Shown piece by piece: positions 15,079-63,989 of a stretch of 64,000 nucleotides of DNA. Source of the DNA: Coriobacteriia bacterium (GTDB lineage: Bacteria > Actinomycetota > Coriobacteriia > WRKU01 > WQUG01); the NCBI GenBank assembly GCA_009781115.1, contig WQYT01000001.1, forward strand, positions 13,413 through 77,412. Direction: 5' to 3'. Each line of letters opens with the position of its first letter. Within the stretch, counting starts at the first letter, position 1. Position numbers and translations under genes: made by a program. The notes beneath the pieces were generated by a model. It did no database searches and was not told where the DNA came from. It saw only the letters and a list, made by a program, of their open reading frames with translations.

Positions 15079-18000
15079 CTATTGCCGCTTAAATTTTATC
15101 GCTAAATAAAGCGTCTTGCTATTGTAAATTATTCCGCCATTGTTTCCATAATTCTTACCCCATACATCGGGATTCACGCTAAAATTATGATACTGAATTT
15201 CGGATATCGGACTTGAGATATGTCCATGTTTTTCTGACCAATAGCCATAGCCATGAGTATCTTGTTTCATAAAATGAAAATCAAACGAACATACTCTTAT
15301 TGCGATTCGATATTCGTTACTATATGTTGAAGCGTTTTTGCCTGAGATTGCTCTTGCTTTGCTACTACCTACTTGTTTGATGACTGTTTTTCGAAAATTT
15401 TCCACAGTAGATAAAGAATCATTAGGATATTTACAACCTGAATGGATATTCATAGCATATGAATAGCAATTAAAATTAGCGGTAGGCTCATTAATCCATC
15501 CCCATGTTTTTGGTCCAACAATCCCATCAACAATCAACCCATTCATCGATTGGAATTTCTTTACCGCAGCTAGCGTATTTGTCCCAAAAATACCATCCTC
15601 TGCCAAAGCCTTGCCGTTTGAACCCCGTACTGTAAAGGTATTCAATCTCCTCTGAAGCTTTTTTACAGTTGCTCCTTGACTACCATATCTCACCGTGGAA
15701 TCAAGCCCGCTCGGATCCGTACCGCCCACCGGCTCTCCCGCACAATACATATACGGGCTCTTCTCGCCGTCTGCTTTGACAGGATCGCGGCTGATGAAGC
15801 TTGCGGTGGTCGGGTCATAGTAGCGTTGGCTGCAATAGTACAAGCCAGCCTCAGCATCCCAAACATAGCCCGCATAACGCAGAGGTTGTGCTGCTGATAT
15901 CTGCTGAGCCAGATCAAGGGCAATAAGCGATGTTGCAAATTCTGTGTCGGAAGTAATGTTTCCAAAAGCGTCATAGTCGTAGCGAGCAAAGGTATCCCCA
16001 TTGGTGTCTCTAAGCTCGCGTACGTCTCCTCTGGCATCACTGACAATCTCGAAGTTTACTGGAGCTGTCGTCGCAGTCGTAGTAGTGCTGTAGCAAGCCC
16101 CAACGGGTGTTGAGCCTGATCCATACAGATAGATGATGCTTTGAGTCTCTGTAGAAGATTTTGCGGCTAGCGAGACAAGCTTGGTACCGTCATAGAGGTA
16201 GTTGGTAGTATTGTTTCCTGCCGTCTTTGAAAGCCTCTGGCCTTCTGCGTCATAGGCGCAGGTGAACTTCGCAGGCCCGGTACCGCCATAATATCCTGAA
16301 ACCAGTCTCTGACCAGACCAGCCATAGGTGACCCCATGGTCATCTGATATTCTTCTGCCAAGCCCGTCATAGTTAAAAGAAAACGCTGTCGATACTATAA
16401 AGCCACCGCTACTTGAAGTACGTCCGGCAAGCCTTCCTGCCGTATCATAAGAGTAACTTGTCGCGCCTGCTTGAGTAATATCTCCGGTTGTCGCATTGTA
16501 AGCATAAGCCGTTGTAGTACCGCTCACTTTTGCCGAGGCAAGCTGGGTTCTGTCTGCCGAGTAGGTATAGCTGGCAGACTGAGCACCTAAGCGGCTATAG
16601 CTTGAAGATGTCAACTTTGAGTCATTAGCATCATAAGTATATGTTTTTTGTCCTGGTGCAGAAAGATTAGTGTCGCCTGTCAGGTTACCCTGACTGTCAT
16701 AGCTAAGCTGAGAGCTTTGGGCGCCAACGCTTCTGGCAGTCGGTCTTCCACCCTCGTCATAGCTGGTGTTTGCAGCACTTAGACTTGAACCAAACTTAGG
16801 AGTAAGCGTATCAGAAGCAAGAAGCGCTCCGTTGACAATGCTTGTCTGTGTTGTGCCGTCAGCGTAAGTCTCAGTCTTAGTCGTTACCGTCTGCGCGTTG
16901 ATTCCTGCCCCTGTGTTTTGGTAGGTAAAAGCCTGCTTGTAACCAGATACTGACTCATCGATTACGCTGGGGCGCCCTGCGCTGTCAAAGGTAGTGGCGA
17001 TATCTTTGAGCACCACTGTGTCTTTCAGTTCCTTTTGCTCAGTTATTCTTGAAAGGCCATCGTAAGTATAGTCAACCTCTGTGCCATCGGGATTGACCTG
17101 CTTGGTTACCCTTGAAGCATTATCGTAGGTCGTAGTAGTAGGATCATCGGCTCCGACTTTCTCGGTAAGCTGGTTGCCCGCCCTATCATAACTGTAAGTA
17201 GTAGTAACGCTATCAAAGTCAGTTTTTGAGAGAATATCTCCGCGTACATTGTAGATATTGGTAGTAGCCGTCTGCGTTCCCATTTTTGTGGTAAGCAAGC
17301 GACCAGCTAAGTCATAGGTAGAGACAGTCGTTATATCAGGCTTGCCAGAGGCGCTTTGCTTATCGGAGATAACGTTGCCAACCAGATCGTAGTCGCAGGT
17401 ATCAGTCACGCCACCATTTGTTTGTGTTATAGCATTACCCGAAACATCATAGGTCGTGCTCTGATCAGGTTGCCCCGTGGTTTTAGTTGAGGTAACGTTT
17501 CCGGCTGCGTTATAGGTTGTTGTAGTTGGCGCGCTATACGGGGTAGTAGTCGTGCCAAGCACATTGCTGCTTTGTATCTCTTGACCAGATGCATCATATT
17601 TGGTCGTTGTAGTCACTCCGTCAAGAGTTCCTTCGGATTTGGCTTGAATAACGTTTCCTGCCAGGTCACAGGTCGTAACACTTGCGCCTTGCTCCGAATT
17701 TGAGTCTGAAACAGCTTCTCTCCCAAGAACGTCATGAGTCATGGTCGTGATCTCAACGGCTGTTCCCGCACTATCAAGACTTGAAGCAGTAAGAGTGTTT
17801 CCTTGTGCGTCGTAGGTAGTCTTTGTCCAATTTGATTTGACAGACGAACCAGAAGGTAGCTGGTAAGTTTCGGTCACATTACCCAAGTTGTCATAAACAT
17901 TGGTAGTAACAAGCCCGGTCTTATCTGTTGAGGTAAGCAGAGAGCCTGCAACGTCATAGGTCGAGGTATCGGTGATAATCCCGCGCCCATCAGTATTTGA

Positions 18001-21000
18001 GAGTCTGTTGCCACAGTCATCAATGGCGCAGCTCGTGGTGATATCTTGCGGCGTAGCGCTTGTTGCCAGCTGCACTGAATGCTCAATGGTTTTCTGGGAG
18101 TTCCCGTCACAAGCGAAGTCTGAGTAATCCTTGATATCGAAGATATAGGAACCATCAGCATTCTTAGAGAGGGCAGTCTTTTCCTGAGTAGTAAAGCCTT
18201 GGGTGTTGTAGCTGTATTCAGTGCGCTTGCGCGCCCCATTGGCAGCAATCAGCTTTTCTGTCACAAGTATGTTTCCTTTGCTGTCAACGTCATTCCAGGT
18301 CACAGCTCGGGCGTTATCGATCATCTTAATCAGGTCGTTTGCGCTGTTGTAGTAGTACCAGGTCTCAAGCCCTGCCTTGTCGAGAGCGTAAGTCTGATTT
18401 CCCCTGCTGTCATAATCTGACTTGGTGGCGCCTGCCACCCCTACTGAAGCGGGGCAATTAGTAAAGGTAAGCCCATCGGCAGATGCAGATACCGGGTCTT
18501 TAGTCACGATGACCTGGTTGTAGGCATTGTAACTGGTATTTGTTCCATAAAGCTGGTCGACCGAAGCAGACGCCCATATCTCCTGCCCTGTTGGATCAGT
18601 AAGAAATACCTGTCTTTCTTGCCCGGCAGCAAAGCCACCTTGAGCTGTGGCCGAGCCTTTGTCCAATACAGCCTGGCCCACATTGGTTGAGCGCTTGGAA
18701 TAGGTCATGGTAGCAGGAGCAGGCGGGGCGCCTGAAGTGGTATGAGCAAAGCTCACTGAAGCGGTACCGTAAGTGATCGTAGCGCTGTCTTGTCCCCTGC
18801 TGACAGAGGTGATGCGCCCGGAAGCATCTGAAGTAAAGGTGTCGGTGACTTCCCGTGGGCTGCCTTCATATTCAGTCACGGTCATATTGTTGCCACTGAT
18901 TGCATAGGTAAAGGTCTTTGAAGCAGATACGCCTTCTAAGGTGAGGGTATAGCTTGTTGCAGAGTCCTTTGCCAGCTCCAACTTCTGCCCATTGGCAGCC
19001 GTGATGATAGCTCCTCCCGATCCATAACTGTAGGTAGTTTTGTTGTTATTGCGATCACAATCTGAAGTGATCTTTCCGTCAGATCCAAAGAGATGCTGGG
19101 CTCCATCGGCATCCTTTAAAGTGAACCCTGAACTTGTTTTTGTCAGTGTCGAGAACATGCCGGCAGGTGAGAGGTAGGTATCCGTGTTCTTGGGGTCCTG
19201 AGCAAAGAGAATGACCGTTCCGGCGCCATCCGTATACTGTACAGCACCCGTAGAAAGCGTAGTCATATTCTGCTCAAAGCTAAAACGCCAGCCTTTAGGA
19301 AGATAGCTTGAGGTAGAAGCCATATCTGAGAGGTAGGTACGGCTTACTGCGGCAGCAGGACCATAGGTAGCGATCGTAAGGTCGTCAGAGATGATACGGG
19401 TAGCCGCTCTGCCCTCTGCGGCCTCAACAGATTGCCCTGCAACAGTTCCTAACTGCGTATAGCCCGGGTTGGGATTATCAGACACTCTGACGGTACGGTT
19501 ATCCAGCGTGGGCGATACCACACTCGCAGAATAGACGGCGGTCTCTCCATTGGCGTCATAGGCCGCTACCCTGAACCAGTAGTTGACGTTGTTTTGATAG
19601 GTGGTCGTCTTTGATTTGCGATAGATCGCATTAGGGTTATCACGCAGATCAAGTCCGGATCCTGCAAAGGTATCGACATTGGTTCCGCTTGAGAGGTTGC
19701 CGCCAATAAAGCGCTTGGAGGTTGCGTCATAGCTAAACGACACCATGCACTTGGTAGCCTGGTCTGACTGGAGCCATGAATCAGTAAGCAAGTGGCTGGA
19801 TAGCGAGACTTTGTAGGTACGCGCAAGGTTAGTGCTCGTCCATTCCATCAGATAGAGGTTATATCCATCGGAGGTCACGCTGTCAAAGCTTCCAAAGGCT
19901 GTGGTGTTTGCTACAGAGATACTCCAGTCCTTTTCGAAGTGCCCGGTATCGTTGTATTGACGCACGCTGAATCCCTGACCCACTTTGCCTACTGAATAGA
20001 TATGGGCGCCATCACTGGTAAGCATCACCCCATAGCCAGTAGTTCCTGCTGCGATATCAGTACCCGCACTATAGCTGAGCAAAGGTTTATCAAAAGTGAA
20101 GCTTAAGCGACGCGCTGTAGTACTTTCAAAGGTTGATTCCGCGTAGGCAGCGATAGTGGTAGCGTTTGCTGTTGATGCTGTGATGGCGCCGTCATAGAGG
20201 ACCCCGTTAAGTACAAAGGCGCCAAGAGACTGCGGAACGCTGTCTGTAGTGCCTAAGATAACGGGACTTCCATAGGCAGGTTTTGCGTTTGGATAGTTTG
20301 TCTGGGTAAAGCGTACCCATTTGGCAGGTCCTTTGTAGGCGCCCCAGGCTTTGACATAGATGTACTTGCCATCAGGCACAACAATTCCGGAACCTCCGGA
20401 ACCCCCGTTGGTTCCGGTGGTATAAGGGGTTCCTGCTGGATAGGTAAGCGTAGCAGATGAGACTCTGGTTGCAGGGCTGGGACTTTGGCCTGCTGTGTAG
20501 GGGTTACCGGCATAAGTTCCATCTGCCCCATAGCCAGCTACGGTAGTATCGGTGGGATATAAGCCTGCGCCAGACGTTGACCAGGTGATGTTATTGCGCC
20601 CGAGCGTAGTCCCTACCTGACGATAGCTTACCCCATCATAGGTATAGATATGATAACCCGTTGCGTGAGAGTCAGCGCTCCATGAGAGCTTGACCGACCC
20701 CCTGCCGGCATCAGGATAGTCGTTTTTGTTATCAGCAACGCCATCTTTGTTCTTGTCGGTCTCTTTGAAGTAGGCGCCACTGGCTGAAGTTGTAGCGGAC
20801 AGGTTCTTTACGGGCTGCACCAGAGAGGAGCAGGTGATCGTGATATAAGGGGCATTGCCGCCAGCCACAGAAGAAAAAGCATGCCAGTTATTAGTAAGCG
20901 GTGTTGCCTCGGACTCATAGAGCACCAGCCCATAGAAAGCTGTACCTGAGGTAAGCGGGCCGGTAAGCGTTGATGTGATGTCATAGGTGGCCCACAGGCT

Positions 21001-22308
21001 TGTTCCGGTAATAGATGTCGAAGCAATCGCCGAAGACATCGCTGGTTTGTTGTTCCAGTTTACGTTGGTAGGAATAGCAGCTGACGCCTGAGCAAGATAG
21101 CTTGTAGCAGCAGCCGTAGTGAAACAGCGGGTTTGATAAGCGCTGAAGGTGACTTTGCTGACTGAGACCCCCGCCAGATTAGGCAGAGCATCAAAGGTGA
21201 TATAGCTACGGTATTTATTGCCCGTTGAGGTAGTACAGCCAGCAAGAAGTTCTGTTTGATGAAGCGTGGTAGTGGGGCTCACCGAGTTGACGCAGGCATC
21301 TGCAGCCACCGCAACGGTAGCCGTTGGATCGATCTTTACCGGCCATGCACGGTCTTTTGAGCCGAGCCAGTCTTCATTAATAGTAGCCCGAAAACGAGCA
21401 GAAGCCGCAGAAGAAGACAGGAGCTCCCAGGAAGTGTTGGGACAGATGCTACTGCCCGCTTGTCCTGTGCCTGAATCTTCTACAACCAGATCAGACAGCA
21501 AATAAGCGACGCTGCCGTCTGCTTTGACTAACTCCCACGTACCTTTATCTTGCTTAAGACTCAGTCCTGAGAAATCAAGCCTGAAGTCATAGGTGTTTTT
21601 AGTAGTGGGGGTATTAAGGAGCAGGGTCTCTTTTACTCCGCCTGAAAGCGCTTGATATTGCAGGGTGGTGTTGCCTGTCGGGTCAAGGTAGACGGCAGTG
21701 TCACCCAACGTTAAAGGTGAAGAAAGTTGTTGTCCGCAATAGGTGAAGGAGACGCTATAGGGAGCAGATGACGTTGTGTCCGCCGATATAGTTGCCGCTC
21801 CTGTTCCTGAGGCAGAAAAGGATGTCTTATTTTCAGTGGAAAGGGTCGTAACAGCGCCAACCGGAGAATCAGAACCTGATGCAACTAAGTTCGTCGAAAT
21901 GTCTACAAACTGATTATGATCGCCTTTGTAATGAATATCTCCTGTGGAAGCTACTATCTGTCGCTGACCATCAGAAAGCTCATAGGTCTTAGTCGTAGCA
22001 GTACGCTCTTCGATGATCTCACGCACACGTTTAGCATGGGGATCCTTAACTTGAGGTTTTACAACAGCGGCAGGATCAGGAATAGCGTCAGCGGGAGCAG
22101 TATAGGTAGCTTCACCTGAGCCAAGAGGAGGGGTGGAAGCTTCCTGAGAAGGAACAGCAGTGCTCTCATGTGAAGCCGCCACAGCAGAAGCAGGAATGAG
22201 CGCCAGAAGGAGAACGGCAGAAAGGAAAAAACATAACAACCTGCGTAAAGGACTGGTAAAACAGCCCTCGTCAAATGTAGGCACCGACAACTGATTTGTT
22301 TTCTTCAT
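15079..22308 (-). CDS. Sec-secreted RHS/YD-repeat polymorphic toxin (2409 aa) with C-terminal peptidoglycan-binding domain plus Cys/His toxin-like domain
   Basis: N-terminal signal peptide; dozens of YD repeats (YDxxGN, YTYDGLSRI...); RHS core terminates PVGGTDPSGL (DPxGL). A 207-aa tail follows: PG_binding_1-like (LQRRLN...DGIFGTNTLAAVKKFQ...DGIVGPKTW) and a 137-aa Cys/His domain (NCYSYAM...HGYGYWSEKHGH). AAGGAAGG RBS. GC markedly lower than flanks, lowest in the tail. Confidence 0.9.
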   Translation of the reverse strand: MKKTNQLSVPTFDEGCFTSPLRRLLCFFLSAVLLLALIPASAVAASHESTAVPSQEASTPPLGSGEATYTAPADAIPDPAAVVKPQVKDPHAKRVREIIEERTATTKTYELSDGQRQIVASTGDIHYKGDHNQFVDISTNLVASGSDSPVGAVTTLSTENKTSFSASGTGAATISADTTSSAPYSVSFTYCGQQLSSPLTLGDTAVYLDPTGNTTLQYQALSGGVKETLLLNTPTTKNTYDFRLDFSGLSLKQDKGTWELVKADGSVAYLLSDLVVEDSGTGQAGSSICPNTSWELLSSSAASARFRATINEDWLGSKDRAWPVKIDPTATVAVAADACVNSVSPTTTLHQTELLAGCTTSTGNKYRSYITFDALPNLAGVSVSKVTFSAYQTRCFTTAAATSYLAQASAAIPTNVNWNNKPAMSSAIASTSITGTSLWATYDITSTLTGPLTSGTAFYGLVLYESEATPLTNNWHAFSSVAGGNAPYITITCSSLVQPVKNLSATTSASGAYFKETDKNKDGVADNKNDYPDAGRGSVKLSWSADSHATGYHIYTYDGVSYRQVGTTLGRNNITWSTSGAGLYPTDTTVAGYGADGTYAGNPYTAGQSPSPATRVSSATLTYPAGTPYTTGTNGGSGGSGIVVPDGKYIYVKAWGAYKGPAKWVRFTQTNYPNAKPAYGSPVILGTTDSVPQSLGAFVLNGVLYDGAITASTANATTIAAYAESTFESTTARRLSFTFDKPLLSYSAGTDIAAGTTGYGVMLTSDGAHIYSVGKVGQGFSVRQYNDTGHFEKDWSISVANTTAFGSFDSVTSDGYNLYLMEWTSTNLARTYKVSLSSHLLTDSWLQSDQATKCMVSFSYDATSKRFIGGNLSSGTNVDTFAGSGLDLRDNPNAIYRKSKTTTYQNNVNYWFRVAAYDANGETAVYSASVVSPTLDNRTVRVSDNPNPGYTQLGTVAGQSVEAAEGRAATRIISDDLTIATYGPAAAVSRTYLSDMASTSSYLPKGWRFSFEQNMTTLSTGAVQYTDGAGTVILFAQDPKNTDTYLSPAGMFSTLTKTSSGFTLKDADGAQHLFGSDGKITSDCDRNNNKTTYSYGSGGAIITAANGQKLELAKDSATSYTLTLEGVSASKTFTYAISGNNMTVTEYEGSPREVTDTFTSDASGRITSVSRGQDSATITYGTASVSFAHTTSGAPPAPATMTYSKRSTNVGQAVLDKGSATAQGGFAAGQERQVFLTDPTGQEIWASASVDQLYGTNTSYNAYNQVIVTKDPVSASADGLTFTNCPASVGVAGATKSDYDSRGNQTYALDKAGLETWYYYNSANDLIKMIDNARAVTWNDVDSKGNILVTEKLIAANGARKRTEYSYNTQGFTTQEKTALSKNADGSYIFDIKDYSDFACDGNSQKTIEHSVQLATSATPQDITTSCAIDDCGNRLSNTDGRGIITDTSTYDVAGSLLTSTDKTGLVTTNVYDNLGNVTETYQLPSGSSVKSNWTKTTYDAQGNTLTASSLDSAGTAVEITTMTHDVLGREAVSDSNSEQGASVTTCDLAGNVIQAKSEGTLDGVTTTTKYDASGQEIQSSNVLGTTTTPYSAPTTTTYNAAGNVTSTKTTGQPDQSTTYDVSGNAITQTNGGVTDTCDYDLVGNVISDKQSASGKPDITTVSTYDLAGRLLTTKMGTQTATTNIYNVRGDILSKTDFDSVTTTYSYDRAGNQLTEKVGADDPTTTTYDNASRVTKQVNPDGTEVDYTYDGLSRITEQKELKDTVVLKDIATTFDSAGRPSVIDESVSGYKQAFTYQNTGAGINAQTVTTKTETYADGTTQTSIVNGALLASDTLTPKFGSSLSAANTSYDEGGRPTARSVGAQSSQLSYDSQGNLTGDTNLSAPGQKTYTYDANDSKLTSSSYSRLGAQSASYTYSADRTQLASAKVSGTTTAYAYNATTGDITQAGATSYSYDTAGRLAGRTSSSGGFIVSTAFSFNYDGLGRRISDDHGVTYGWSGQRLVSGYYGGTGPAKFTCAYDAEGQRLSKTAGNNTTNYLYDGTKLVSLAAKSSTETQSIIYLYGSGSTPVGACYSTTTTATTAPVNFEIVSDARGDVRELRDTNGDTFARYDYDAFGNITSDTEFATSLIALDLAQQISAAQPLRYAGYVWDAEAGLYYCSQRYYDPTTASFISRDPVKADGEKSPYMYCAGEPVGGTDPSGLDSTVRYGSQGATVKKLQRRLNTFTVRGSNGKALAEDGIFGTNTLAAVKKFQSMNGLIVDGIVGPKTWGWINEPTANFNCYSYAMNIHSGCKYPNDSLSTVENFRKTVIKQVGSSKARAISGKNASTYSNEYRIAIRVCSFDFHFMKQDTHGYGYWSEKHGHISSPISEIQYHNFSVNPDVWGKNYGNNGGIIYNSKTLYLAIKFKRQ

Positions 22309-22479: not shown

Positions 22480-23868
22480 TTAAAGTTCGCCGTTGCGGAA
22501 CTTATTAACCAGCATAATGCGATTTCTTGAACCTGTTTTTGATAAGAGCGAATTGACATGGTTTTGCACCGTGGTTGTCTTAACGCCCATTACTGCAGCG
22601 ATCTCCTCGGTGCCTTTACTGTTGGCAAGCAATTGCACGACCTCTAATTCTCGACCGGTAAACGAGGTTTTTGTTAAAACAGTTTGCTTATGTTCAGTAA
22701 CTTCCGGCTGATTCTTCTGCGGCAAAGCATCCAGGAAAATCAGAAGCACAAATACCAAAACCGCAAAAAGGATAATGGTTAACGGCAACAGAAACTCTGC
22801 CCGCCTGGCAAAGTCTGCCACTGAAAGCCCCAGCACATGCAAGTTTAAAAAGCCCTCACTGGAAAAATACACGAGCAAGCCCAAGCCTGCAATGAAGCCC
22901 TTATGCGAACGCCGCGCAGCCGCGATCATACAAAGAATATGGATAAGAAACACACAGCCTTTTACCCCAAGGTTGAGCAATAGATAAGCCATATTGTTTC
23001 CCGGAGAGTCCCCGTAAAGAAAAAGGGGCAGAAGGCAGCCCAACACCAGCAAAACAATCGGGATAGCCATGTTCAGTATACTGAATCGCTTATCTATCAA
23101 ATACCCTAAAAGAGCGCCAAAGGGAATGCGCAAAATGATAATGACCAAATAAAGGAACGGTATGCTTGCTGTCCCCCCTTGCTTTTCTAACGTTCCTGAA
23201 TTCATCACCTGTCCCAAAAGAACCAGGATGGTGAGCCCAACCAATAAAAGACCCAGACTACGCGAAGCCAAAACTCTCGATTCCAATGGATCTGGACTCC
23301 CTACGTCTTCGTTGCTTTTTGGCCAAAAATAAAACGCCGCAGATAAAAGCACCACCAAGATAAGAAACCCTATCGTAGTGATGGGTGTCTTTGGAAGAAG
23401 CGCCGATAAAAATTGGTAACCAAGTTTGAAGGGATATATCGCAAGAGAATAGAGGCTTGCAGAAATGCCGATTTTCAGCCCCCGGTTTCGCGCGTCGCCA
23501 CTTTCAAGGAAACTCACCAGCACCGCACAAACAAATAGTCCAATAATAATACCAAACCCGACAGATAGGACGATCAAAAACGACGTCCCTTGAAATGCAA
23601 GCATCCCGATACTGTATATCAGCAAAAGAATCGGCGCTAGGCCACGATAGGCGCGACAAAACTGTGGGTAGAAATGTTCAAGTAGCCCGTAAAGCAAAAT
23701 CCCCAGAGGAATCAGCTGTAGCGTAGCGTTTCCTGCAGCACTGAAACGCCCACTGGTTACATAAATAAGCTCGGCAGCGATGCCAATCGCTACCATCGAT
23801 AGACAGAGCGCTAAGAAGGGGTGATTCTTTTTACTTTTTAGCAAAAGGAGGGATTTATCGCTATCCAT
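22480..23868 (-). CDS. LuxR-family transcriptional regulator with ~10-12 TM N-terminal membrane domain
   Basis: C-terminal HTH (LEVVQLLANSKGTEEIAAVMGVKTTTVQNHVNSLLSKTG); long hydrophobic N-terminal region; AT-rich. Confidence 0.8.
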   Translation of the reverse strand: MDSDKSLLLLKSKKNHPFLALCLSMVAIGIAAELIYVTSGRFSAAGNATLQLIPLGILLYGLLEHFYPQFCRAYRGLAPILLLIYSIGMLAFQGTSFLIVLSVGFGIIIGLFVCAVLVSFLESGDARNRGLKIGISASLYSLAIYPFKLGYQFLSALLPKTPITTIGFLILVVLLSAAFYFWPKSNEDVGSPDPLESRVLASRSLGLLLVGLTILVLLGQVMNSGTLEKQGGTASIPFLYLVIIILRIPFGALLGYLIDKRFSILNMAIPIVLLVLGCLLPLFLYGDSPGNNMAYLLLNLGVKGCVFLIHILCMIAAARRSHKGFIAGLGLLVYFSSEGFLNLHVLGLSVADFARRAEFLLPLTIILFAVLVFVLLIFLDALPQKNQPEVTEHKQTVLTKTSFTGRELEVVQLLANSKGTEEIAAVMGVKTTTVQNHVNSLLSKTGSRNRIMLVNKFRNGEL

Positions 23869-47605: not shown

Positions 47606-49579
47606 CTAGGGCGCAGACCCCGACGTCTGATCCTGAGTCGGCGGAGCATAGAGCAAGACCGGCAGGCCCAGCTGATAGTCCTGGCTGCCGGCCGGGAACT
47701 GCTGCGTGACGATACCGGTCCGCTGTCCTTTGGGCAGCGGTACCACCCAGGGGTCCAGCCCCAGAGAGCGCAGCTTATCCTGCGCCGAGGCAAGCGGGGT
47801 ACCGAGCAAGCTGGGAACCTTCACCGCGGGGTTTGTTCCCGCGCTGATCAGCACGCCGACCGTAGCGCCCGCGGCAAGACGCGTGTCCGTGGACTGCGGG
47901 ACCTGGGCCACCACCTTGCCCGCAGACGCGGAGCTGGTCACGATACGTCGCACGTCAACATTGAAACCGGCATTTTTGAGCGCCTTGGTTGCCGCAGCCT
48001 CATCCTGGCCGGTCACATCGGGCACAATCATGCCGCTGGTCGAGTTGCCCTGGCTGACAAGCACCATAACTACCGAGCCCGGCAACGCCAGCCCGGTCGA
48101 TGCGGGCGTCTGCGCCACGGCCTCGTTCACGGCGCCAAATACCGTCTGCGCGTAGTAAAACAGGGGGATAAATCCCTGATCACTCAAGAGCTTTGTAGCG
48201 TCTGCTTTGGAGAGCCCGAGGACTTTTGGCACGGTAACTGAGGTGCTCATCGAGCCCTGGCTGATCAGCACCGCGACCTTTGATCCGCTGTCTACTGTGG
48301 TTCCGGCAACCGGAACCTGCCCGACAATCTGCCCGGGCGGCACCGTATCGCTGAAGGTTTTGACCTCCTGATAGACCAGCCGCGACTCTGTGAGCGCGGT
48401 GCTCGCATCAGAGGGCGCCATACGCAGTACCGAAGGCACCAGCGCCTGTTCAGAGGCTTGCGCGACCGTCAGGCTCACGGCAGAGCCGCGCGCCACCTTA
48501 GTATCAACCTGAGGGTCCTGGTCCATGATAGTACCCGGCACAACATCGGCCGTCGGCTTTTCTGTCAGCTGGCCAACCTTGAGATGGCTGCTATTGAGGG
48601 CAGCTACCGCATCAGTCTGATTCTTGCCAACCAGATCGGGAACAGTCACCTGGTTATAATACACCTGGTACCAGACAAACGCGCCGGCCAAAAGCAGGAC
48701 GGCCAGCCCTCCGACGATCAACGCAATCTGGAGTTTTCGCTGTGACTTCTGCGGCCCATTGGCCTCAGCTATCAGGCGCTCTTCGGCAGACGCCATGGCG
48801 TTCTGCGCCCGATCAAGCACCCCGAAAAATCCCCGCATGCGGGGCTCGTCATCAGCATCGGGAGCGTCTAAGGCATCCTGGATGTCTAAGGCATCAAGCG
48901 TATCTAGGGCGCCGGTATCTGCGTCCTCGTCTCCGGGCAGCACGTCAGGCTCCGGCAAGGTTGAGGTGCTGGTTTCCATGCGCAGGTTTTCAAGCGCCTT
49001 ATTAATAACCCCCTCGTCAACGGCATCCGGGACCGCCTTTTCCTCCAGAATGCGCTGAAGGACCTCCTCGCTTATCTGCTTTTCTTCCGAGGCGGGCTTT
49101 GCTTCCGGGTGTTGTTTAGCTGGGCTTTCGGGCTCCCTTTTATCAGGCGCCTGGGGCTTTGTGTTGTCCTTTGCTTTTGAGGCGGCGTCTGGCTTGGGCT
49201 TGGGCTTGGGCTTCGGCTTCGGTTTTGGGGTTGCTTTTTGCCGGGGCTTTGGCTTCGGCTTCGATTGTGGCTTTGGCTTTGGTTCTGCCTCGGGCCTGGA
49301 TGCTGGCGCGGATTTTTCCTGAGCTTCCGATGCAAGCTTTGGCGCGGATTTCTCTGTCGGTTTTGACGCGGGCTTCTCCATAGGCTTTGGCGCGAGCTTC
49401 TTCTCTGCGATCTCTGCCGACGCAGCAGTCTTTCCTGCGGCCTTTGTCCCCGCCTTCTGCCCAGAAGGAGCTTTCGACTCGACCTGCGGCTTGTCCCCGG
49501 GCTGCGGCTTGCCCTCGACCTGCAGCTTGCCCTCGGCTTGCGGCTTCGCGTTAGATTCTGGTTTGGCTTTATCTGGCAT
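47606..49579 (-). CDS. Kinase-less PASTA-repeat membrane protein with long Lys/Pro-rich disordered cytoplasmic N-terminus
   Basis: KPKPKP repeats; single TM (LQIALIVGGLAVLLLAGAFVW); ~5 extracellular PASTA-like repeats (VPDLVGKNQTDA..., VPKVLGLSKADA..., VPDVTGQDEAAA..., VPSLLGTPLASA...). Start ATG overlaps the gatA stop (TAATG). Confidence 0.75.
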   Translation of the reverse strand: MPDKAKPESNAKPQAEGKLQVEGKPQPGDKPQVESKAPSGQKAGTKAAGKTAASAEIAEKKLAPKPMEKPASKPTEKSAPKLASEAQEKSAPASRPEAEPKPKPQSKPKPKPRQKATPKPKPKPKPKPKPDAASKAKDNTKPQAPDKREPESPAKQHPEAKPASEEKQISEEVLQRILEEKAVPDAVDEGVINKALENLRMETSTSTLPEPDVLPGDEDADTGALDTLDALDIQDALDAPDADDEPRMRGFFGVLDRAQNAMASAEERLIAEANGPQKSQRKLQIALIVGGLAVLLLAGAFVWYQVYYNQVTVPDLVGKNQTDAVAALNSSHLKVGQLTEKPTADVVPGTIMDQDPQVDTKVARGSAVSLTVAQASEQALVPSVLRMAPSDASTALTESRLVYQEVKTFSDTVPPGQIVGQVPVAGTTVDSGSKVAVLISQGSMSTSVTVPKVLGLSKADATKLLSDQGFIPLFYYAQTVFGAVNEAVAQTPASTGLALPGSVVMVLVSQGNSTSGMIVPDVTGQDEAAATKALKNAGFNVDVRRIVTSSASAGKVVAQVPQSTDTRLAAGATVGVLISAGTNPAVKVPSLLGTPLASAQDKLRSLGLDPWVVPLPKGQRTGIVTQQFPAGSQDYQLGLPVLLYAPPTQDQTSGSAP

Positions 49580-56602: not shown

Positions 56603-56836
56603 CTACTTGTAGCGATACGTGATGCGACCACGACTCAGGTCGTAGGGCGAAAGCTCAACTTTCACGCGGTCGCCCGGAAGGATACGGATGTAGTGCATGC
56701 GCATCTTACCAGAGATATGAGCCAGAATCTGATGCCCCGGGCCGTTCTCGTTATCGAGTTCGACCTTAAACATCGCATTGGGGAGCGGCTCGATAACCGT
56801 CCCTTCAAGCTCAATTGCTGCTTCTTTTTCTGTCAA
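56603..56836 (-). CDS. infA: Translation initiation factor IF-1
   Basis: [20 protein letters not shown]...[15 protein letters not shown]. Confidence 0.85.
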
Positions 56837-58559
56837 AACTTACGTACGCCTTCCTGTCGCAATCTGAGAAAACACGCGGTTTATTATCGTAGCATGCAGC
56901 AGTGCCTATTGCAACCGAGCAGATCTGACTACACGGTATCGACACGCCCGGTGGCGTTGGTTGTGCCCGGTGACTTGGTCGCGCTGGTCGCTTTGGTCGC
57001 TTCGATTGCTTTGACTGCCGCGATTGCTGCGATTGCTGCGACCGGATGATGAGAGGCGGACGGACCGGCTCTATAGTCAGGCCACGATCCTTACCGCCAT
57101 GACCGGGCGTGTCAGTAGTAGGTTTGCTGGGGCCGGGGGTATCTGTTGTTGGCCTGCTGGGCGGAGTAATTATCAGCCCACGATGAGACGGACTGCCGCC
57201 CGTGCCATCATCCTGCCCCCCAGGCGCAGGAGGCAGCGCAGGGGGATTTCCGGGAGACGATGATCCCGGCCCCGGTCCTGACCCCGATCCCGCGTTAGCC
57301 GCGCTTGCGGTGCGACGGCCCGCGGCGCCACCGCGGGCCGCCTGGCCACTCTGAGTCTTGTTCTGCGTAGACGTCTGGGACTGATCGTTTGCGGCGCTTT
57401 TCTGATCGTCGCTACTCTGACTCTGCGTCCCGGAGGAGCCAGACGAGCCCCCCTTGCCGCCGCCAGAGCCGCCGCCGCCCGTGTGGACGACTTTGGCCGC
57501 AGCCTGCTTCTGCGCAGCTGCGGTCGCAGCGCGATGGGCCAGCGTGACGCCCCCGGCTGCCACCCCGGCAACCAGCGCCACGCTGACAACACCGGCCACT
57601 GCCGCCTGGGCGGGATTGGCCGTGGCGCGCGCGATCAGTTTAGGTATCAGCTTGAGCGTCAAAGCGGGCAGGTGCGACGCGTTTGCCGCCGTGGCAGAAG
57701 CCGCCGACGCGCTGATGGCCGTCCCCGCAATTACCGGAGCTGTGGCAGAAGCCAACGCGGGCAGACCCACGGCGCGCACCACATTGCTCCAGATATCGGG
57801 GGCAACCGTCAGCAAAGAATGATGCTCCGGTATCAGGCGCGCGACGCTGGCGCTCAGCTCGCCAAAATTCGGCGACAATTCAAACTGCATAAGCTGGCGA
57901 GTGATAAACGGCACAATGAGCATCGCATCCATGCGCCCCAGGGCCGAGTTGACCTCAAATCCTGGCATGGTTGCGGCCAGGGATGGCTCGCCTTCTCCAA
58001 GCAGAACCAGCAAGTGCCGGCGCGCCTTGAAAAGCCGGGAGCGCGCCGCCGTATACGTGACCCCGAGAACACCCGCGATATCATCGACCGAAAGGCCCTC
58101 GACGTAATACAGCAAAATAACTTCTTTTTGCTTCTGGGAAAGCGACTGGATCGCCGCCCAGGTCTCCTCGTCTGCCTCGTGCGCCTCCAGGGCCTCATCC
58201 GGGGAAAAACTCTCGCTGCCGCCTAAAAGATCGGCCAGTATGTCCTGACCCAGCTCTGCGCTGATGTCATGCTCATGCTTGCGCGCCTGTAGCATTCCGC
58301 GGCAAGCGCTGGCGATGACCGCGTTCAGCCAGGTCTGGAAGTAGTCAGAATTCTTCAGCTCCTCAATATGTTTATAGACATGAATGAAAGCAGCCTGAGT
58401 GACCTTCTGCGCCTCCTCCCGATCATTAAGCAACACGAGCGCCCGGTAGTAGACAAGCGGCAGCAGCTCTGCGTAGAGTTGCTCGAAATTCTCCTCTTTA
58501 TCCGCGCGGACCTGGTCGACCAGAGCGATCAGGCGTTCTTTATTCAGCTGCTGTTTCAC
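56811..58559 (-). CDS. ECF-type sigma-70 factor fused to a C-terminal anti-sigma-like segment, TM helix and Gly/Ser/Pro/Gln-rich extracytoplasmic tail
   Basis: Region 2 ([17 protein letters not shown]...[14 protein letters not shown]...FQTWLNAVI) and region 4 ([44 protein letters not shown]) in the first ~190 aa. [20 protein letters not shown] near residue 340. GTG start; 3' end overlaps infA by 26 nt. Confidence 0.75.
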
Positions 58560-58661
58560 GATAAATGATTCCTCTTCTTAAGCCACAATGTGAGCTATTC
58601 TTAAACATCAGTGTGAATCCACCCAGTTTTTATTATAATGGCTCCGGAGAGAAGGTGCACT

Positions 58662-59552
58662 ATGTTATTAATATCATGGAATGTTAATGGTATCCGGGCC
58701 GCGCTGAACAAGGGTTTCCTGGATTTTTTTGAGAGCGCCGACGCCGACGCATTCTGCTTAAATGAGACCAAAGCCCAGCCGGAACAGGTCGAGCTGGAGC
58801 TGCCCGGTTACCACCAATACTGGAACTCCGCCGAGCGCAAGGGCTACTCGGGGACGGCGATCTTTTCTAAGACCGAGCCGCTGTCTGTGGTGCGCGACTT
58901 TATCCCGACCCTGCGCGCAAGCCAGGTCAGACGCAGCGCGGTCACCGTCAGCGCGGACAGCAAGGACCCGCAGATCGCCGCCATCGGCACAGATAAGGCG
59001 GAGGCGCGCGCCCGTGGGTTTGGCGCAGATGAGCTGCGCGCGCTTGACACCGAGGGACGCATCACCGCGCTTGAGTACCCGGGGTTCTGGTTGGTGAGCG
59101 TCTATGTCCCGAACTCCCAGGACGACCTGGCGCGCATCGATCACCGCATGGCGTTTGAGGATGCGTTTCGCGCCTTCTGCAAGAAGCTTGACCGGAGCAA
59201 GCCGGTCGTGGTCTGCGGCGACATGAACGTCGCGCACGCCGAGATCGACCTGGCCCGGCCCCGGCCCAATCGCGGCGGCGCCGGGTTCTCCGATCAGGAG
59301 CGCGGCAAGTTTGACGAGCTCCTGGCGGCGGGGTTCGTGGACAGCTACCGGGCGCTGCACCCCACGCAGACTGACGCCTACACCTGGTGGTCGTTTCGCG
59401 CGAATGCCCGCGCCCGCAACGTCGGCTGGCGCATCGACTACTTCCTGGCGTCAGCACGGCTGATGCCCCAGGTCACTGGCGCGCTGATCTATCCGGAAGT
59501 AACGGGCTCGGATCACTGCCCCATCGGGCTGAGGCTGGCAGAACTCTCTTGA
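58662..59552 (+). CDS. xth: Exodeoxyribonuclease III (Xth/APE family)
   Basis: Start ATG 58662 (MLLISWNVNGIRA) with GGAGAGAAGG RBS; catalytic motifs ...LNETK..., ...GDMNVAH..., ...SDHCP. Confidence 0.85.
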   Translation: MLLISWNVNGIRAALNKGFLDFFESADADAFCLNETKAQPEQVELELPGYHQYWNSAERKGYSGTAIFSKTEPLSVVRDFIPTLRASQVRRSAVTVSADSKDPQIAAIGTDKAEARARGFGADELRALDTEGRITALEYPGFWLVSVYVPNSQDDLARIDHRMAFEDAFRAFCKKLDRSKPVVVCGDMNVAHAEIDLARPRPNRGGAGFSDQERGKFDELLAAGFVDSYRALHPTQTDAYTWWSFRANARARNVGWRIDYFLASARLMPQVTGALIYPEVTGSDHCPIGLRLAELS

Positions 59553-59809
59553 TTCTGATTGACCTGGCGCCCGGCGCGTGGTACCTGGCGCCTGTCGCTT
59601 GGCGCCTGTCACCTGTCGCCTGGTACCTGGTACCTGGCGTCTGTCGCTTGTCGCGTGGTGCCCAAACTTCATGTCACTGTCAACCACTAAGAAAAAAATA
59701 TCCAGAGAAACATCCTTAAACTGATATCATTAAACTGATATCATTAATAGTAAGGAGAAGCGTCGTGGCGCAGTACTGTCCACGGCGCGCCGATAGAGAA
59801 AGGATTATT

Positions 59810-60379
59810 ATGTATCCCGATGAGTTTGGCACCCCACCAGTCGAAGATTATAACGCAGCCGCACCCGCTCCGGAGGCTCCCGTACCGCCCGCGCCTGTGG
59901 CGCCACCGGTACCGCCTGCTCCGGAGTATGGCCCCGCGCCCGTACCTCCGGCGCCCCAGTATGCTCCGGCGCCAGAAGCCCCCGCGCCTCAGCCCTATGC
60001 GCCCGCACCACAGCCACAGCCGCAGTATGCGCCCGCCCCGTATGCCCCTGAAGGACAGAACGCGGGACCAGATGACGGAAAGGGCATGGGGATTGCCTCT
60101 CTGGTACTGGGCGCCGTTGGTTTTATTCTGAGCTTTGTTGGTATCGGCGCTATTGCCGGTATCATTGGGCTTATCCTCGGCATTTCTGCCAAAAAGAAAT
60201 CCGCCCAGTACAGCGTCACAAGCGGTTTGTCAATTGCAGGAATTGTCTTAAGCATCATAGCCATTTTCATTGGCCTTCTCATGCTTTTGATTGGGGGGTC
60301 ACTGGCCTCAATCTTTAACGGCTTAAACAGCAGTGGCTACTACAGCGCGATAGTCTCTCATCTGGCAAGCATCTGCTAG
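59810..60379 (+). CDS. DUF4190-like small membrane protein with Pro/Ala-rich N-terminus (paralog 1)
   Basis: Start MYPDEFG at 59810 with AAAGGA RBS; PAPxY repeats then two TM helices (GIASLVLGAVGFILSF..GIIGLILGI). Confidence 0.6.
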   Translation: MYPDEFGTPPVEDYNAAAPAPEAPVPPAPVAPPVPPAPEYGPAPVPPAPQYAPAPEAPAPQPYAPAPQPQPQYAPAPYAPEGQNAGPDDGKGMGIASLVLGAVGFILSFVGIGAIAGIIGLILGISAKKKSAQYSVTSGLSIAGIVLSIIAIFIGLLMLLIGGSLASIFNGLNSSGYYSAIVSHLASIC

Positions 60380-60542: not shown

Positions 60543-61028
60543 ATGTATCCAGATGAAATCGGCTCCACCCCAACAGGAGCCTACGCCGCGCCAGCGCCTG
60601 CGCCTGCGCCAGCGGCAGCACCGTTTCCCGCTCCCGTAAGTCCCGAGCCTCAATACGCGCCTCCCCAGTACGGGTCTGTGCCATACGCGCCTCCCCAGTA
60701 CGGGCCAGTTAATACCGGGACCCCCGCTAATCCTTTGGGGGACGCACAGGGCTTCAGCCTCGCAGGCATGGTGCTGGGGATCATCTCGATCCCTCTGGGC
60801 TCAAGCCTCGTCTTTGGTATTCTGGGTCTGGTGTTCTCGATCATGGGCGAGAAGCGGACGCCAGCCGGGGCAGAAAACAACTATGCCAAAACGGGCAAGG
60901 TTTGCTCAATCATCGGCCTGTCACTGGGCATACTGATCTGGGTCCTCGTCATCGTGCTTTACATCGGCCTGTTTGCCGCGCTCTTCGCTAACATACGATC
61001 AACAGGAGGCTCAAGCAGCCTCTATTAA
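60543..61028 (+). CDS. DUF4190-like small membrane protein (paralog 2)
   Basis: MYPDEIGSTP...; same architecture as paralog 1; GGAGAG RBS. Confidence 0.6.
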   Translation: MYPDEIGSTPTGAYAAPAPAPAPAAAPFPAPVSPEPQYAPPQYGSVPYAPPQYGPVNTGTPANPLGDAQGFSLAGMVLGIISIPLGSSLVFGILGLVFSIMGEKRTPAGAENNYAKTGKVCSIIGLSLGILIWVLVIVLYIGLFAALFANIRSTGGSSSLY

Positions 61029-61131: not shown

Positions 61132-61923
61132 TTATATGTGGGCGGGCCACCGCTCCCCCTCATCCTCGCAGGTCAGTATCATCGGGCCGTCGGCGGTGAC
61201 AGCGATCGTGTGCTCGACCTGGGCCGCGCGGCTCCCATCGACGGTGACCACACACCAGCCGTCGTGGCGCACTTTGACGCGCTCGCCGCCCAGCATGAAC
61301 ATGGGCTCGATGGCAAACACCATGCCCACCTCAAGGCGCGCTCCCGTGCCTGGCGTGCCATAGTTGGGCACGCTGGGATCCTCGTGCATCACGTGACCGA
61401 CCCCGTGCCCGGTATACTCGCGCACGATGCCCAGGCCCGCCGCCTCGGCCACCGCGCCAACGGCTGCGGAGACATCGCCAAAATGGCCGCCCGGCACCGC
61501 GTGGGCAATGCCCGCGTAGAGCGCCTGACGGGTCACGTCAATCAGGCGCTGACCGTCTGCATCCAGCGCGCCGCCAATGCCGACCGAGTTCGCGTTATCC
61601 CCCACCCAGTCGTTACAGGTAGCGCCCACATCAATCGTGAGCAGGTCGCCCGCATAAAGCTTCATGCGGGGCGAGGGAATGCCATGAACGATCTCTTCGT
61701 TGATGCTCGCGCAAATGCAGCCCTTAAAGCCCCCGTAGCCCAGGAAGGTCGGCACGGCCCCTTCGCCGCGGATCGTCTCTTCTGCCAGCTCATCAAGCTC
61801 TTTGGTGGTGATGCCCGGGCGCGCGGCCTCGCAGGTCACGCGCAGCGCACGGGCGGCGATACGCCCGGCGTCTTTCATCTGCTCGACTTCCGCCGGCGTT
61901 TTGATTTGTATGCCCCTGCTCAT
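61132..61923 (-). CDS. map: Methionine aminopeptidase type I
   Basis: IKTPAEVEQMKDAGRIAA...; metal-ligand Asp/His/Glu pattern. Confidence 0.9.
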   Translation of the reverse strand: MSRGIQIKTPAEVEQMKDAGRIAARALRVTCEAARPGITTKELDELAEETIRGEGAVPTFLGYGGFKGCICASINEEIVHGIPSPRMKLYAGDLLTIDVGATCNDWVGDNANSVGIGGALDADGQRLIDVTRQALYAGIAHAVPGGHFGDVSAAVGAVAEAAGLGIVREYTGHGVGHVMHEDPSVPNYGTPGTGARLEVGMVFAIEPMFMLGGERVKVRHDGWCVVTVDGSRAAQVEHTIAVTADGPMILTCEDEGERWPAHI

Positions 61924-61928
61924 GGCGG

Positions 61929-62558
61929 TTAGTGCTCGCAGGCAGCCTTGACGTCAGCCCAGACCTCCGCGATGGGCCGGTCCCCGTCGACTTCAACCAA
62001 CACGTTTTTGCCCTGGTAATAGTTGATGAGCGGCGAGGTCTGCTGCGCATAGACAGACAGCCGGTTGCGGATCGTCGCCTCGTTATCATCGGCGCGCTGC
62101 TCAAGGACGCCGCCGCAGGACTTGCACGTGTCACCTTCACCTGCGGTCGTGATGCGCCCGCAGCCCGCGCAGGTCCGCCGCGCGCTCAGGCGCTTGACGA
62201 TGACCTCGGGGTCAATGTCGATAGAAAGCGCCACGTCGATCTTGCGCTCAGAGCCCGCCAGCGCCTCGTCCAGCGCGACCGCCTGCGCCGCAGTACGCGG
62301 AAAGCCATCCAGAATGAATCCCGGGGCCGTGTCTGGACGGGCCAGGCGCTCGTCCATCAGGTCGATCACCAACTGGTCAGGAACCAGCTCGCCCGCGTCC
62401 ATGTACTTTTTTGCCTCAAGCCCCAAGGGAGTACCCTCGCCAACAGCCGCACGGAAGATGTCGCCTGTCGAGATGTGAGGGATGCCATAGGCCTCAACCA
62501 ACTGCTTTGCCTGCGTGCCTTTACCCGCGCCCGGAGCCCCCAATAAAACGATATTCAT
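61929..62558 (-). CDS. adk: Adenylate kinase (with Zn-finger lid)
   Basis: Start at ATG 62558 (MNIVLLGAPGAGKGTQ) with AAAGGGA RBS; lid CAGCGR...CKSCGG. Confidence 0.9.
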   Translation of the reverse strand: MNIVLLGAPGAGKGTQAKQLVEAYGIPHISTGDIFRAAVGEGTPLGLEAKKYMDAGELVPDQLVIDLMDERLARPDTAPGFILDGFPRTAAQAVALDEALAGSERKIDVALSIDIDPEVIVKRLSARRTCAGCGRITTAGEGDTCKSCGGVLEQRADDNEATIRNRLSVYAQQTSPLINYYQGKNVLVEVDGDRPIAEVWADVKAACEH

Positions 62559-62618
62559 GTGATTCCCTTTCGTCACAATATGACCGCTCTTATGATAGCA
62601 CGGAGCCCCCTGCAATCT

Positions 62619-63989
62619 CTAACCTAACCGCCGCCGCCGAAGCGCACATACCCCCGCAGCACCCACACCCGCCATCAGCAACAGAACCGGCGCCAGAAAG
62701 CTGGCCGCATCCCCCGCATCAGGCAAACCCAACGGAGGCGCCGGAACTTTCACCCACACGCTACTCTCCCCATCAGTATAAGTCCTGTAGCCCGCCTTGG
62801 TAGCAGGAGTAACAAACGCTGATTTCTTACGTTTCTTCCCGCCCACCATGACATAGCTGGTTGCAGAGGTGACCGTTCCGTCGATAGTCACCTCCGCCCC
62901 ATTGTTAGCCGAAACAGCGGTATCAGTTTTTGAGATAACGTTACCTGCTACATACACCCGCGTAGGAGTACCCGTATTTTTAGTGCGCGCATGCCAGATG
63001 GGAGGTACGGTCGAAGCGATGACTGGTGTCCGTGCCGTATCAGTTGTGTTGTTGCCAGGAAGAATAGGCGCCGGGATTACGTCACTAACACCGGCGGGTC
63101 CCGTATAAACGTAGTTGTCTGCAAAAACCGCATTACCTGTAGCGGTAATCCTGCCGCCAACTTTTACCTGTGCGCCACTATCAGCATGTATACCCTGAGA
63201 CTGTCTGCCCTTTGCGGCGATATTACCTGAAACTGTTACCTTAGTCCCCTCGCCTGCTAAGACCCCACAACTATCCTTGCCTGACATAAAAATACTACCC
63301 GCCAGCGCAACACATGAGCTTTCATCCACAGAGATTGCATCCCAGGTTGCATGAATATCACCTTTCATCGTTATCTCTGCGTCCCCCCATGCATCGATAC
63401 CCGTACTGCAAGAAGCAATATCTCCCGTTAAGCTCATCTTAGTCGCACCCGAAACTTCTAACGCAGTATAAGCATTAATGCCACCTGCCACGGTAACAGT
63501 TGAACAGCTTTTGCTTTGCGGATCGGGAGGATACTGAGCCCAATCAGAGATTGCGGTATTCGATACTTTTATCTTGCCATGAATCGTAATGGTTGAACCG
63601 CCAGGGTAGATTGCATCACCCCAACCAATTGCAATAACCGAACCACCAATATCAACCGTGCAATTATCCAGGCTGAGGGCGCAAGACGACTCTCCCGAAA
63701 CTGACACGGTCTTCTTTATCGCAATCTCTGAATCGGATGCATCGACCGCAATAGCCTGTTCCCCTTTTGCGTTGACACATCCTCCCACATTGACCGTGGA
63801 ATGCCACGCAATGATACCTTCCGCGTACTCACCTGATGCCTCAATATTACCCTTAACACTAACAACTGCTTTGTGATAGGCGCCAATAGCAACACCGCTC
63901 ATTTCGGCAGCACGAGCATCCACCTTAGCGTGCGTCACCTTGCAGGAACCCCCACTAACACAGAGCGCGGCGGCGCCGGTAGATATCAC
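62619..63989 (-). CDS. Cell-surface repeat (beta-helix/adhesin-like) protein, C-terminal part with LPDAG-TM-RRRR sorting-signal-like tail; N-terminus lies beyond the window end
   Basis: Repetitive G/S/T-rich segments with periodic Cys; C-terminus PPLGLPDAGDAASFLAPVLLLMAGVGAAGVCALRRRRLG; ORF open to the window edge. Confidence 0.55.
   Translation of the reverse strand: MISTGAAALCVSGGSCKVTHAKVDARAAEMSGVAIGAYHKAVVSVKGNIEASGEYAEGIIAWHSTVNVGGCVNAKGEQAIAVDASDSEIAIKKTVSVSGESSCALSLDNCTVDIGGSVIAIGWGDAIYPGGSTITIHGKIKVSNTAISDWAQYPPDPQSKSCSTVTVAGGINAYTALEVSGATKMSLTGDIASCSTGIDAWGDAEITMKGDIHATWDAISVDESSCVALAGSIFMSGKDSCGVLAGEGTKVTVSGNIAAKGRQSQGIHADSGAQVKVGGRITATGNAVFADNYVYTGPAGVSDVIPAPILPGNNTTDTARTPVIASTVPPIWHARTKNTGTPTRVYVAGNVISKTDTAVSANNGAEVTIDGTVTSATSYVMVGGKKRKKSAFVTPATKAGYRTYTDGESSVWVKVPAPPLGLPDAGDAASFLAPVLLLMAGVGAAGVCALRRRRLG

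Follow-up and report, generated by a model that had tools for sequence, protein, structure and literature searches.

Introduction

Fusions of an extracytoplasmic function (ECF) sigma factor to an anti-sigma moiety are known from Actinobacteria, where they have one or two transmembrane (TM) helices and long Pro-rich tails and where proteolytic release has been proposed, and proteolytic activation has been demonstrated for IutY (PMC8999054, PMC5826349). Here we describe an ECF sigma factor that continues, on the same chain, into a membrane-anchored C-terminal extension and is encoded on the minus strand (56811-58559) of a 64-kb window from a Coriobacteriia bacterium (64,000 nt of assembly GCA_009781115.1, contig WQYT01000001.1, positions 13,413 to 77,412), together with its relatives and its position directly upstream of infA. 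All coordinates refer to the window, i.e., the whole stretch of DNA that was analysed.

Among the closest described systems, the ECF52, ECF48 and ECF53 groups (e.g., SCO4117 of Streptomyces coelicolor) share with the window protein their occurrence in the Actinomycetota, the succession of ECF core, cytoplasmic segment, TM helix and long Pro-rich extension (extracytoplasmic in these groups and presumably so here), and the lack of an adjoining separate anti-sigma gene; the TM helix and long Pro-rich extension that define these groups are both present in the window family. They differ in having a zinc (ZAS) motif (HxxxCxxC, PF13490) after region sigma4, which the window family lacks, and ECF52 (SCO4117-like) proteins also have a C-terminal carbohydrate-binding module that is missing from the window protein. 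IutY of Pseudomonas putida (ECF243), a FecI-FecR fusion, shares with the window protein one TM helix and a single-chain sigma/anti-sigma layout, which in the latter is putative; its activation through cleavage by Prc and RseP has been demonstrated experimentally, and truncation renders it constitutively active. In contrast with the window protein, IutY has a FecR-type anti-sigma and a periplasmic domain and serves TonB-dependent cell-surface signalling in a Gram-negative organism; Pfam finds neither PF13490 nor FecR in the window protein.

The nearest solved sigma cores are those of the RpoE-RseA, AlgU-MucA and SigW-RsiW systems, in which a single-pass membrane anti-sigma is removed by regulated intramembrane proteolysis. 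In these systems, however, the anti-sigma is the product of a separate gene and the sigma factor is usually autoregulated from an ECF-type promoter, whereas the putative partner in the window protein is part of the same chain and shows no sequence relationship to theirs, and the DNA upstream of the gene has no conserved ECF-type promoter. Finally, the class I anti-sigma domain (ASDI) consists of four helices sandwiched between sigma2 and sigma4; in the extension of the window protein, three helices are predicted, at a modelling confidence (pLDDT) of 30-59.

Results

An ECF sigma core within a single, uninterrupted reading frame

The open reading frame (ORF) starts at a GTG codon and encodes 582 aa, a product identical to a public protein from a Coriobacteriia metagenome-assembled genome (MAG) whose annotation reads 'sigma-70 family RNA polymerase sigma factor'. 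A preliminary description of the locus had placed sigma-70 regions 2 and 4 in the first ~190 aa, and hidden Markov models confirm both above their curated cutoffs: Sigma70_r2 covers aa 28-93 (58281-58478; Pfam PF04542, 32.7 bits versus a cutoff of 24; AlphaFold2 pLDDT 64-87) and Sigma70_r4_2 covers aa 133-183 (58011-58163; PF08281, 57.1 bits versus 25.7; also PF04545, 35.9 bits). The acidic linker that joins them (aa 94-132, 58164-58280) is modelled at pLDDT <50 and contains invariant alignment columns, its conservation in the family alignments being unusually high. The protein belongs to the ECF (group 4) sigma factors, with sigma2 and sigma4, and neither region 1.1 nor region 3, as its sigma regions and a superfamily-level match above the curated cutoff (NCBIfam TIGR02937, sigma70-ECF; aa 24-185, 87.4 bits versus 42.9); every score of the NCBIfam equivalog and subfamily models on this ORF lies far below cutoff. 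Among solved structures, the best matches, whether by sequence profile (PDB) or by fold (Foldseek with the model), are all ECF sigma factors, headed by AlgU, SigW and RpoE and covering only aa ~8-192. The core is otherwise distant from everything else, the nearest relatives outside the family being 33% identical; sigL of Mycobacterium tuberculosis (Rv0735) is a weak match (28.8 bits).

The same architecture recurs in five orthologues of 451-569 aa, with overall identities of 53-67%, encoded in other assemblies of termite-gut Coriobacteriia; two of them come from MAGs that Hervé et al. obtained from the guts of higher termites (PMC7024585). A scan of a genome collection recovered true relatives in two termite-gut MAGs only, and P0007, a distant fused ECF sigma factor that does carry a ZAS motif (HVSHCGSC), is 26% identical over 29% of the query. 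The reading frame runs uninterrupted across the junction between sigma4 and the extension in 6/6 members (the window protein and its five orthologues), and because the junction is retained in orthologues from other assemblies, no frameshift splits the fusion into a sigma/anti-sigma pair, in agreement with the single chain originally proposed. The ORF encodes a genuine single-chain, membrane-anchored ECF sigma factor, found only in one small clade of Coriobacteriia from termite guts.

The extension is constrained up to the membrane

A variable linker of ~15 aa follows sigma4 and leads to a conserved helical segment devoid of cysteine (aa ~201-264, 57768-57959; conserved in six sequences), a candidate cis-inhibitory module with predicted helices at aa 201-224, 232-246 and 254-264 that two AlphaFold2 runs place in the pLDDT range quoted above. 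An Ala/Ser/Thr-rich juxtamembrane linker (aa 265-315, 57615-57767) then precedes the single TM helix (aa 316-342, 57534-57614; Kyte-Doolittle values up to 2.19 in a 19-residue window), whose position is identical in 6/6 family members. Across aa 191-345 the six proteins contain no cysteine, except for one within the TM helix of P0005. A 24-bit match of the Ala-rich linker to DapA (dihydrodipicolinate synthase) was judged probably compositional and was discarded.

After this helix, the window protein continues for 240 aa of low complexity (S35 G34 P27 A26 Q19 R18 T18), and, as first described, one TM helix is followed by a tail with PTTDTPG repeats, present in two copies (aa 470-476 and 480-486, 57102-57152). 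The G/S/P/Q/T/A-rich part (aa 343-537, 56949-57533) varies among orthologues in both length and sequence; post-TM tails range from 110 to 240 aa across the family, and motifs of the type PTT[DEN]TP occur once in P0002 and five times in P0003. At the DNA level, the tail contains tandem repeats of 9 nt, i.e., three codons (56975-57041; TRF), and Pfam detects no domain after the TM helix.

Mean column identity is 79% up to aa ~345 and conservation collapses in the tail. The ratios of nonsynonymous to synonymous substitution (dN/dS), Nei-Gojobori estimates that are rough values since dS is saturated, are 0.08 for sigma2, 0.10 for sigma4, 0.11 for the linker between them, 0.17 for the helices of the extension, 0.16 for the TM helix and 0.29 for the Ala/Ser/Thr-rich linker. 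Given this high column identity and low dN/dS, the extension up to the membrane is a constrained protein segment under purifying selection and not junk sequence.

The sigma gene as a lineage-specific insertion upstream of infA

On the minus strand, genes follow the order adk (61929-62615), map (61132-61923), a gap, the sigma gene, infA, rpmJ, rpsM, rpsK, rpsD, rpoA and rplQ. The sigma gene had been described as lying inside the conserved adk-map-infA cluster, and it does lie between map and infA; the cluster is nonetheless not contiguous, since the gap holds three plus-strand genes, namely two that encode DUF4190-like Pro-rich membrane proteins and xth, an exodeoxyribonuclease III family gene (58662-59552, plus strand; Pfam Exo_endo_phos, E=3e-33) divergent from the sigma gene. 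The alignment supports an xth start at a conserved ATG at 58662 (MLLISWNVNG), as against the listed 58638. Because xth is divergent and three plus-strand genes intervene, the sigma gene cannot be co-transcribed with adk and map.

Comparison of related loci yields a graded series. The full fusion is found in the window and in L001-L003, L006 and L010; in L009, a sigma core of only 202 aa stands between xth and infA; L011 has divergent xth followed by infA (IF-1 86% identical) without a sigma gene; L012 and L013, also without it, have map, an S8 peptidase gene, xth and infA; and in L014 and L015 map is followed directly by infA, an arrangement widespread in Coriobacteriales. The block of divergent xth, sigma and infA is kept in all sigma-bearing relatives, whereas the genes between map and xth vary; the insertion is thus conserved among the relatives that have the sigma gene and absent from L011-L015. 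This series, which includes arrangements lacking the sigma gene, indicates that the gene is a lineage-specific insertion between xth and infA.

The context had been called very unusual for such a sigma factor, which holds for this clade, with the qualification that it is a lineage-specific trait and that a precedent exists. In M. tuberculosis H37Rv, sigL (Rv0735) lies directly after adk-mapA, and represents another ECF gene at a break of the secY-adk-map/infA cluster in an actinobacterium; there, RslA (Rv0736) is a separate ZAS anti-sigma and infA is located elsewhere in the genome.

Several features of the neighbouring DNA accompany this locus. The two DUF4190-like proteins (59765-60379 and 60543-61028, both on the plus strand) are paralogous small membrane proteins with Pro/Ala/Tyr-rich N-termini made of PAPxYAP repeats and sub-threshold DUF4190 matches; in relatives, DUF5684 proteins take the place of this pair at the variable spot between map and xth. 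Two separate repeat tracts are present: downstream of xth, an intergenic CCTGGCG repeat with a 7-nt period and ~14 copies (59563-59662), for which 21- or 35-nt periods can alternatively be read, and immediately upstream of a DUF4190-like gene a 14-nt direct repeat, ATCATTAAACTGAT, in 2.6 copies (59712-59747). Upstream of adk, the ORF at 62619-63989 (minus strand) was considered as secY and rejected; it encodes instead a repeat-rich surface protein with weak beta-helix-like matches and a C-terminal anchor of the LPxAG/LPXTG type. Since an LPXTG-like protein occupies this position, the link between secY and adk is likewise broken here.

The core-only variant of L009

The L009 sigma protein (P0008, 202 aa, at 1243-1851 of that locus) is 68% identical to the core of the fused proteins and has an intact ORF and promoter; as a natural core-only variant at the same locus, it identifies the sigma core as a separable unit. 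Over infA-rpsK, L009 differs from the window, L010 and L002 by DNA distances of 0.12-0.13; for L006, which has the fusion, the distances to every other locus are 0.19-0.21. As L009 is as near to the window as the fused loci are, and a fused locus is the most distant, secondary loss of the extension in L009 is favoured by these comparisons. Neighbour-joining trees with bootstrap have support too low to be used, the sigma-core tree setting P0008 outside the fused proteins, and an ancestral core-only state is possible as an alternative. P0008 is separated from the fused orthologues by distances of 0.28-0.31, beyond what would be expected from the ribosomal-protein DNA of L009, a divergence compatible with altered constraints following loss of the extension.

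Transcription of the sigma gene

A palindromic -10-like box, ATTATAAT (58632-58639), lies between xth and the sigma gene and is likely the sigma promoter. It is invariant in five sigma-bearing loci, occurs in L009 too, and is absent from L011, which has no sigma gene; it matches the TATAAT type perfectly and, besides the Shine-Dalgarno (SD) sequence and start codon of xth, is the only conserved element of this intergenic region. The box could be used in either direction. No ECF-type -35/-10 autoregulatory motif is conserved upstream of the sigma gene in the aligned loci. The conservation of a TATAAT-type box and the absence of an ECF-type motif suggest that transcription of the sigma gene may be constitutive and of the housekeeping type, with control exerted at the protein level.

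infA has its own upstream elements and the overlap is probably incidental

The infA gene (56603-56836, minus strand; Pfam eIF-1a, E=3e-28) encodes the 77-aa translation initiation factor IF-1 and begins at a TTG codon conserved in seven loci. In this clade, IF-1 carries a clade-specific insertion of 4-5 residues in the OB-fold (DNENGPGHQ), nearly all other IF-1 matches being 72-73 aa long. A DNA alignment of seven loci from the 3' end of the sigma gene to the infA start revealed a near-invariant order of elements: a palindrome, TTGCAx followed after 17/18 nt by TACGATAAT, then AGACCGCGTGTTTT, the SD sequence ACAGGAAGG and the TTG start. In the window, these comprise a near-invariant sigma-A-type promoter-like element (TTGCAA, 17 nt, TACGAT(AAT); 56883-56914, minus strand) and the conserved infA SD (56849-56857, minus strand). 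The same promoter element and the beginning of the untranslated region (UTR) are found in L011 (TTGAAT-17-TACGATAATAAACCGCGTGT), and because they are present there without a sigma gene, they can be assigned to infA.

The palindrome (AACGCC-NCCG-GGCGT; 56944-56958, minus strand) is conserved in the window, L001, L002, L003, L009 and L010 at 5-45 nt from the -35 of the infA promoter. Its stem is 5 bp (-7 kcal/mol), and neither covariation nor a U-tract accompanies it, which gives no grounds for reading it as a terminator; the palindrome could be either a 3'-end hairpin or a protein-binding site. The sigma ORF ends shortly before it in L001, L002, L003 and L009; in L010 the ORF crosses it in the frame used by the window (PTPPGVS), and a TAG directly before the -35 ends it.

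In the window, the sigma stop codon (56811-56813) lies 26 nt within infA on the same strand, as first reported and as confirmed from the TTG start. This overlap occurs in the window only, the sigma stop of relatives lying 77-290 nt upstream of infA. The last 45 codons and the stop (56811-56948, minus strand) constitute a window-specific read-through that crosses the 3' half of the palindrome, the infA promoter, its 5'-UTR and SD, and ends 26 nt into infA. Their GC content at the three codon positions is 0.40/0.53/0.49, versus 0.68/0.32/0.69 in the sigma core, and their composition is Cys-rich, unlike the remaining tail. Here only the window frame is free of stops, the other two ending within 12-20 codons, and the overlap would have arisen because indels in the repetitive tail shifted the ORF into that frame. 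Since the overlap is not conserved and infA has its own promoter, UTR and SD, it provides no evidence for coupling, and it is probably an incidental by-product of tail indels without regulatory meaning. No terminator is predicted between the two genes, and some transcripts of the sigma gene may read through into infA.

A model of cis-masking and release, and its alternatives

We favour, with moderate confidence, a reading in which the window protein is a clade-specific single-chain ECF sigma factor, masked in cis and released by cleavage, whose gene was inserted before infA with an incidental overlap. The gene would have entered between xth and a pre-existing infA promoter. Made constitutively from a housekeeping-type promoter, the protein would insert into the membrane so that the sigma domains face the cytoplasm and the disordered, fast-evolving tail lies outside, and the helical segment would mask sigma2 and sigma4 in cis. 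Cutting of the tail or TM helix, by site-1 and then site-2 proteolysis, with degradation of the remnant in the cytoplasm, would then free a soluble, active sigma core. Masking and release are proposed by analogy, because AlgU, SigW and RpoE use single-pass anti-sigmas and intramembrane proteolysis, cleavage has been shown to activate IutY and is proposed to do so in ECF48/52/53, and a core-only variant exists.

A number of results weigh against this reading. HMMER, run exhaustively over 1.84 billion cluster representatives with a profile built from aa 188-346, matched the family's own cluster alone; when the extension was compared with Pfam and the PDB by profile, no anti-sigma family appeared at E<=10; and the HxxxCxxC motif is absent from 6/6 family members. 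AlphaFold2 models built on aa 1-346 (six sequences) and aa 1-272 (nine sequences) reach pLDDT 60-87 in sigma2/sigma4 and 30-59 in the extension, and at a pTM of 0.31-0.37 give no confident docking of the extension onto sigma2/sigma4. Neither a protease partner nor a target promoter or regulon was found. The tail is presumed to lie outside the cell only because the protein lacks a signal peptide and a sigma factor acts in the cytoplasm, and the terminal frame of the window ORF is backed by a single MAG assembly. Foldseek with the aa 1-272 model matched the sigma core alone, and no S2P gene was found among the scanned ORFs of the window, which spans only 64 kb. The preliminary description had called the extension anti-sigma-like; with no homologue, no ZAS motif and low-confidence models, this does not stand as a homology statement, and the term may be applied only by analogy to the arrangement of a flexible linker, three helices and one TM helix.

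The absence of both anti-sigma homology and a ZAS motif would also fit an extension that is not an inhibitor at all, i.e., a permanent tether, with the sigma factor working from the membrane on DNA close by, or a positive module needed for activity like those of ECF41/ECF42, with no release. In other ECF groups, C-terminal extensions play positive or conformational roles (PMC7826278, PMC8999054), and the same genome encodes an MFS-like membrane regulator with a LuxR helix-turn-helix (HTH). However, the core encoded alone in L009, with intact ORF and promoter, argues for a core that can stand by itself, and the known fused ECF sigma factors with TM helices are thought or shown to require cleavage, so that we regard a tether or positive module as unlikely. 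Integration of the sigma gene into the infA-rpmJ-rpsM operon, as originally suggested, with co-transcription and translational coupling that would tie envelope sensing to the synthesis of translation factors, draws on the shared strand, the lack of a predicted intrinsic terminator, the adjacency of the two genes in seven loci and an overlap that is real in the window. Against it stand the spacers of all relatives, the conserved promoter-like element, UTR and SD of infA itself, the first of which also occurs in a genome that lacks the sigma gene, the non-coding-like composition of the overlap codons, and a stop 26 nt past the infA start that would be poorly sited for termination-reinitiation. 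Of the original suggestion, some read-through transcription may occur, whereas coupling, and with it this whole reading, appears quite improbable.

Two further explanations would restore a conventional two-protein system. A separate anti-sigma could be produced by internal initiation within the same ORF, e.g., at Met210, which is invariant, and a GGAGAAGG string does occur within the DNA coding for the linker. This string, however, is 22 nt from ATG199 and farther still from ATG210, leaving no start codon at an SD-like spacing, and it is accounted for by the codons for LLGEGE/LLEEGE, which makes internal initiation very improbable. Alternatively, an assembly or sequencing frameshift in the MAG could have joined a true sigma/anti-sigma pair, given that a single contig backs the window sequence and that 9-nt repeats lie in the tail. 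The junction is nevertheless uninterrupted in five orthologues from other assemblies, and an error could alter at most the last ~45-60 codons, the alternative frames stopping at 56930 or within the promoter; for the fusion itself, an artefact is largely refuted and hardly credible.

Other genes of the window

The window also encodes a second membrane-embedded transcription regulator, a 462-aa protein with an MFS-like membrane domain and a C-terminal LuxR/GerE HTH (22480-23868, minus strand). Between gatA and gatB of the gatCAB operon lies a gene for a 657-aa protein with several PASTA domains (47606-49579, minus strand), in which no further domain was detected, neither kinase nor transpeptidase. 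The ORF at 15079-22308 (minus strand) encodes a protein of 2409 aa that combines RHS repeats with a peptidoglycan-binding domain.

Discussion

The architecture described here is already known in Actinobacteria; what is new is an extension that has no ZAS motif and is a sequence orphan. A more speculative view, to which we give little weight, is that the extension is an orphan cis-module born in this lineage, possibly de novo or diverged beyond recognition, creating from an RpoE/SigW-like sigma factor a one-component transmembrane sensor without the zinc-finger anti-sigma fold, that transcription of the sigma gene also feeds infA-rpmJ-rpsM-rpsK-rpsD-rpoA, and that the clade displays gain of the fusion, its loss in L009 and absence of the gene in L011.

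The overlap with infA is a cautionary case, in which an apparent coupling overlap corresponds to an ORF running through the conserved promoter and ribosome-binding site of its neighbour. The series observed at one locus, comprising the full fusion, the core only and no sigma gene, offers a natural comparison for the origin of the fusion and the contribution of the extension. If the proposed mechanism is true, the protein would add a non-ZAS, sequence-orphan case to the few single-chain sigma/anti-sigma 'one-component' ECF sigma factors; beyond this, the finding is of local interest, concerning a narrow clade of uncultured termite-gut bacteria.

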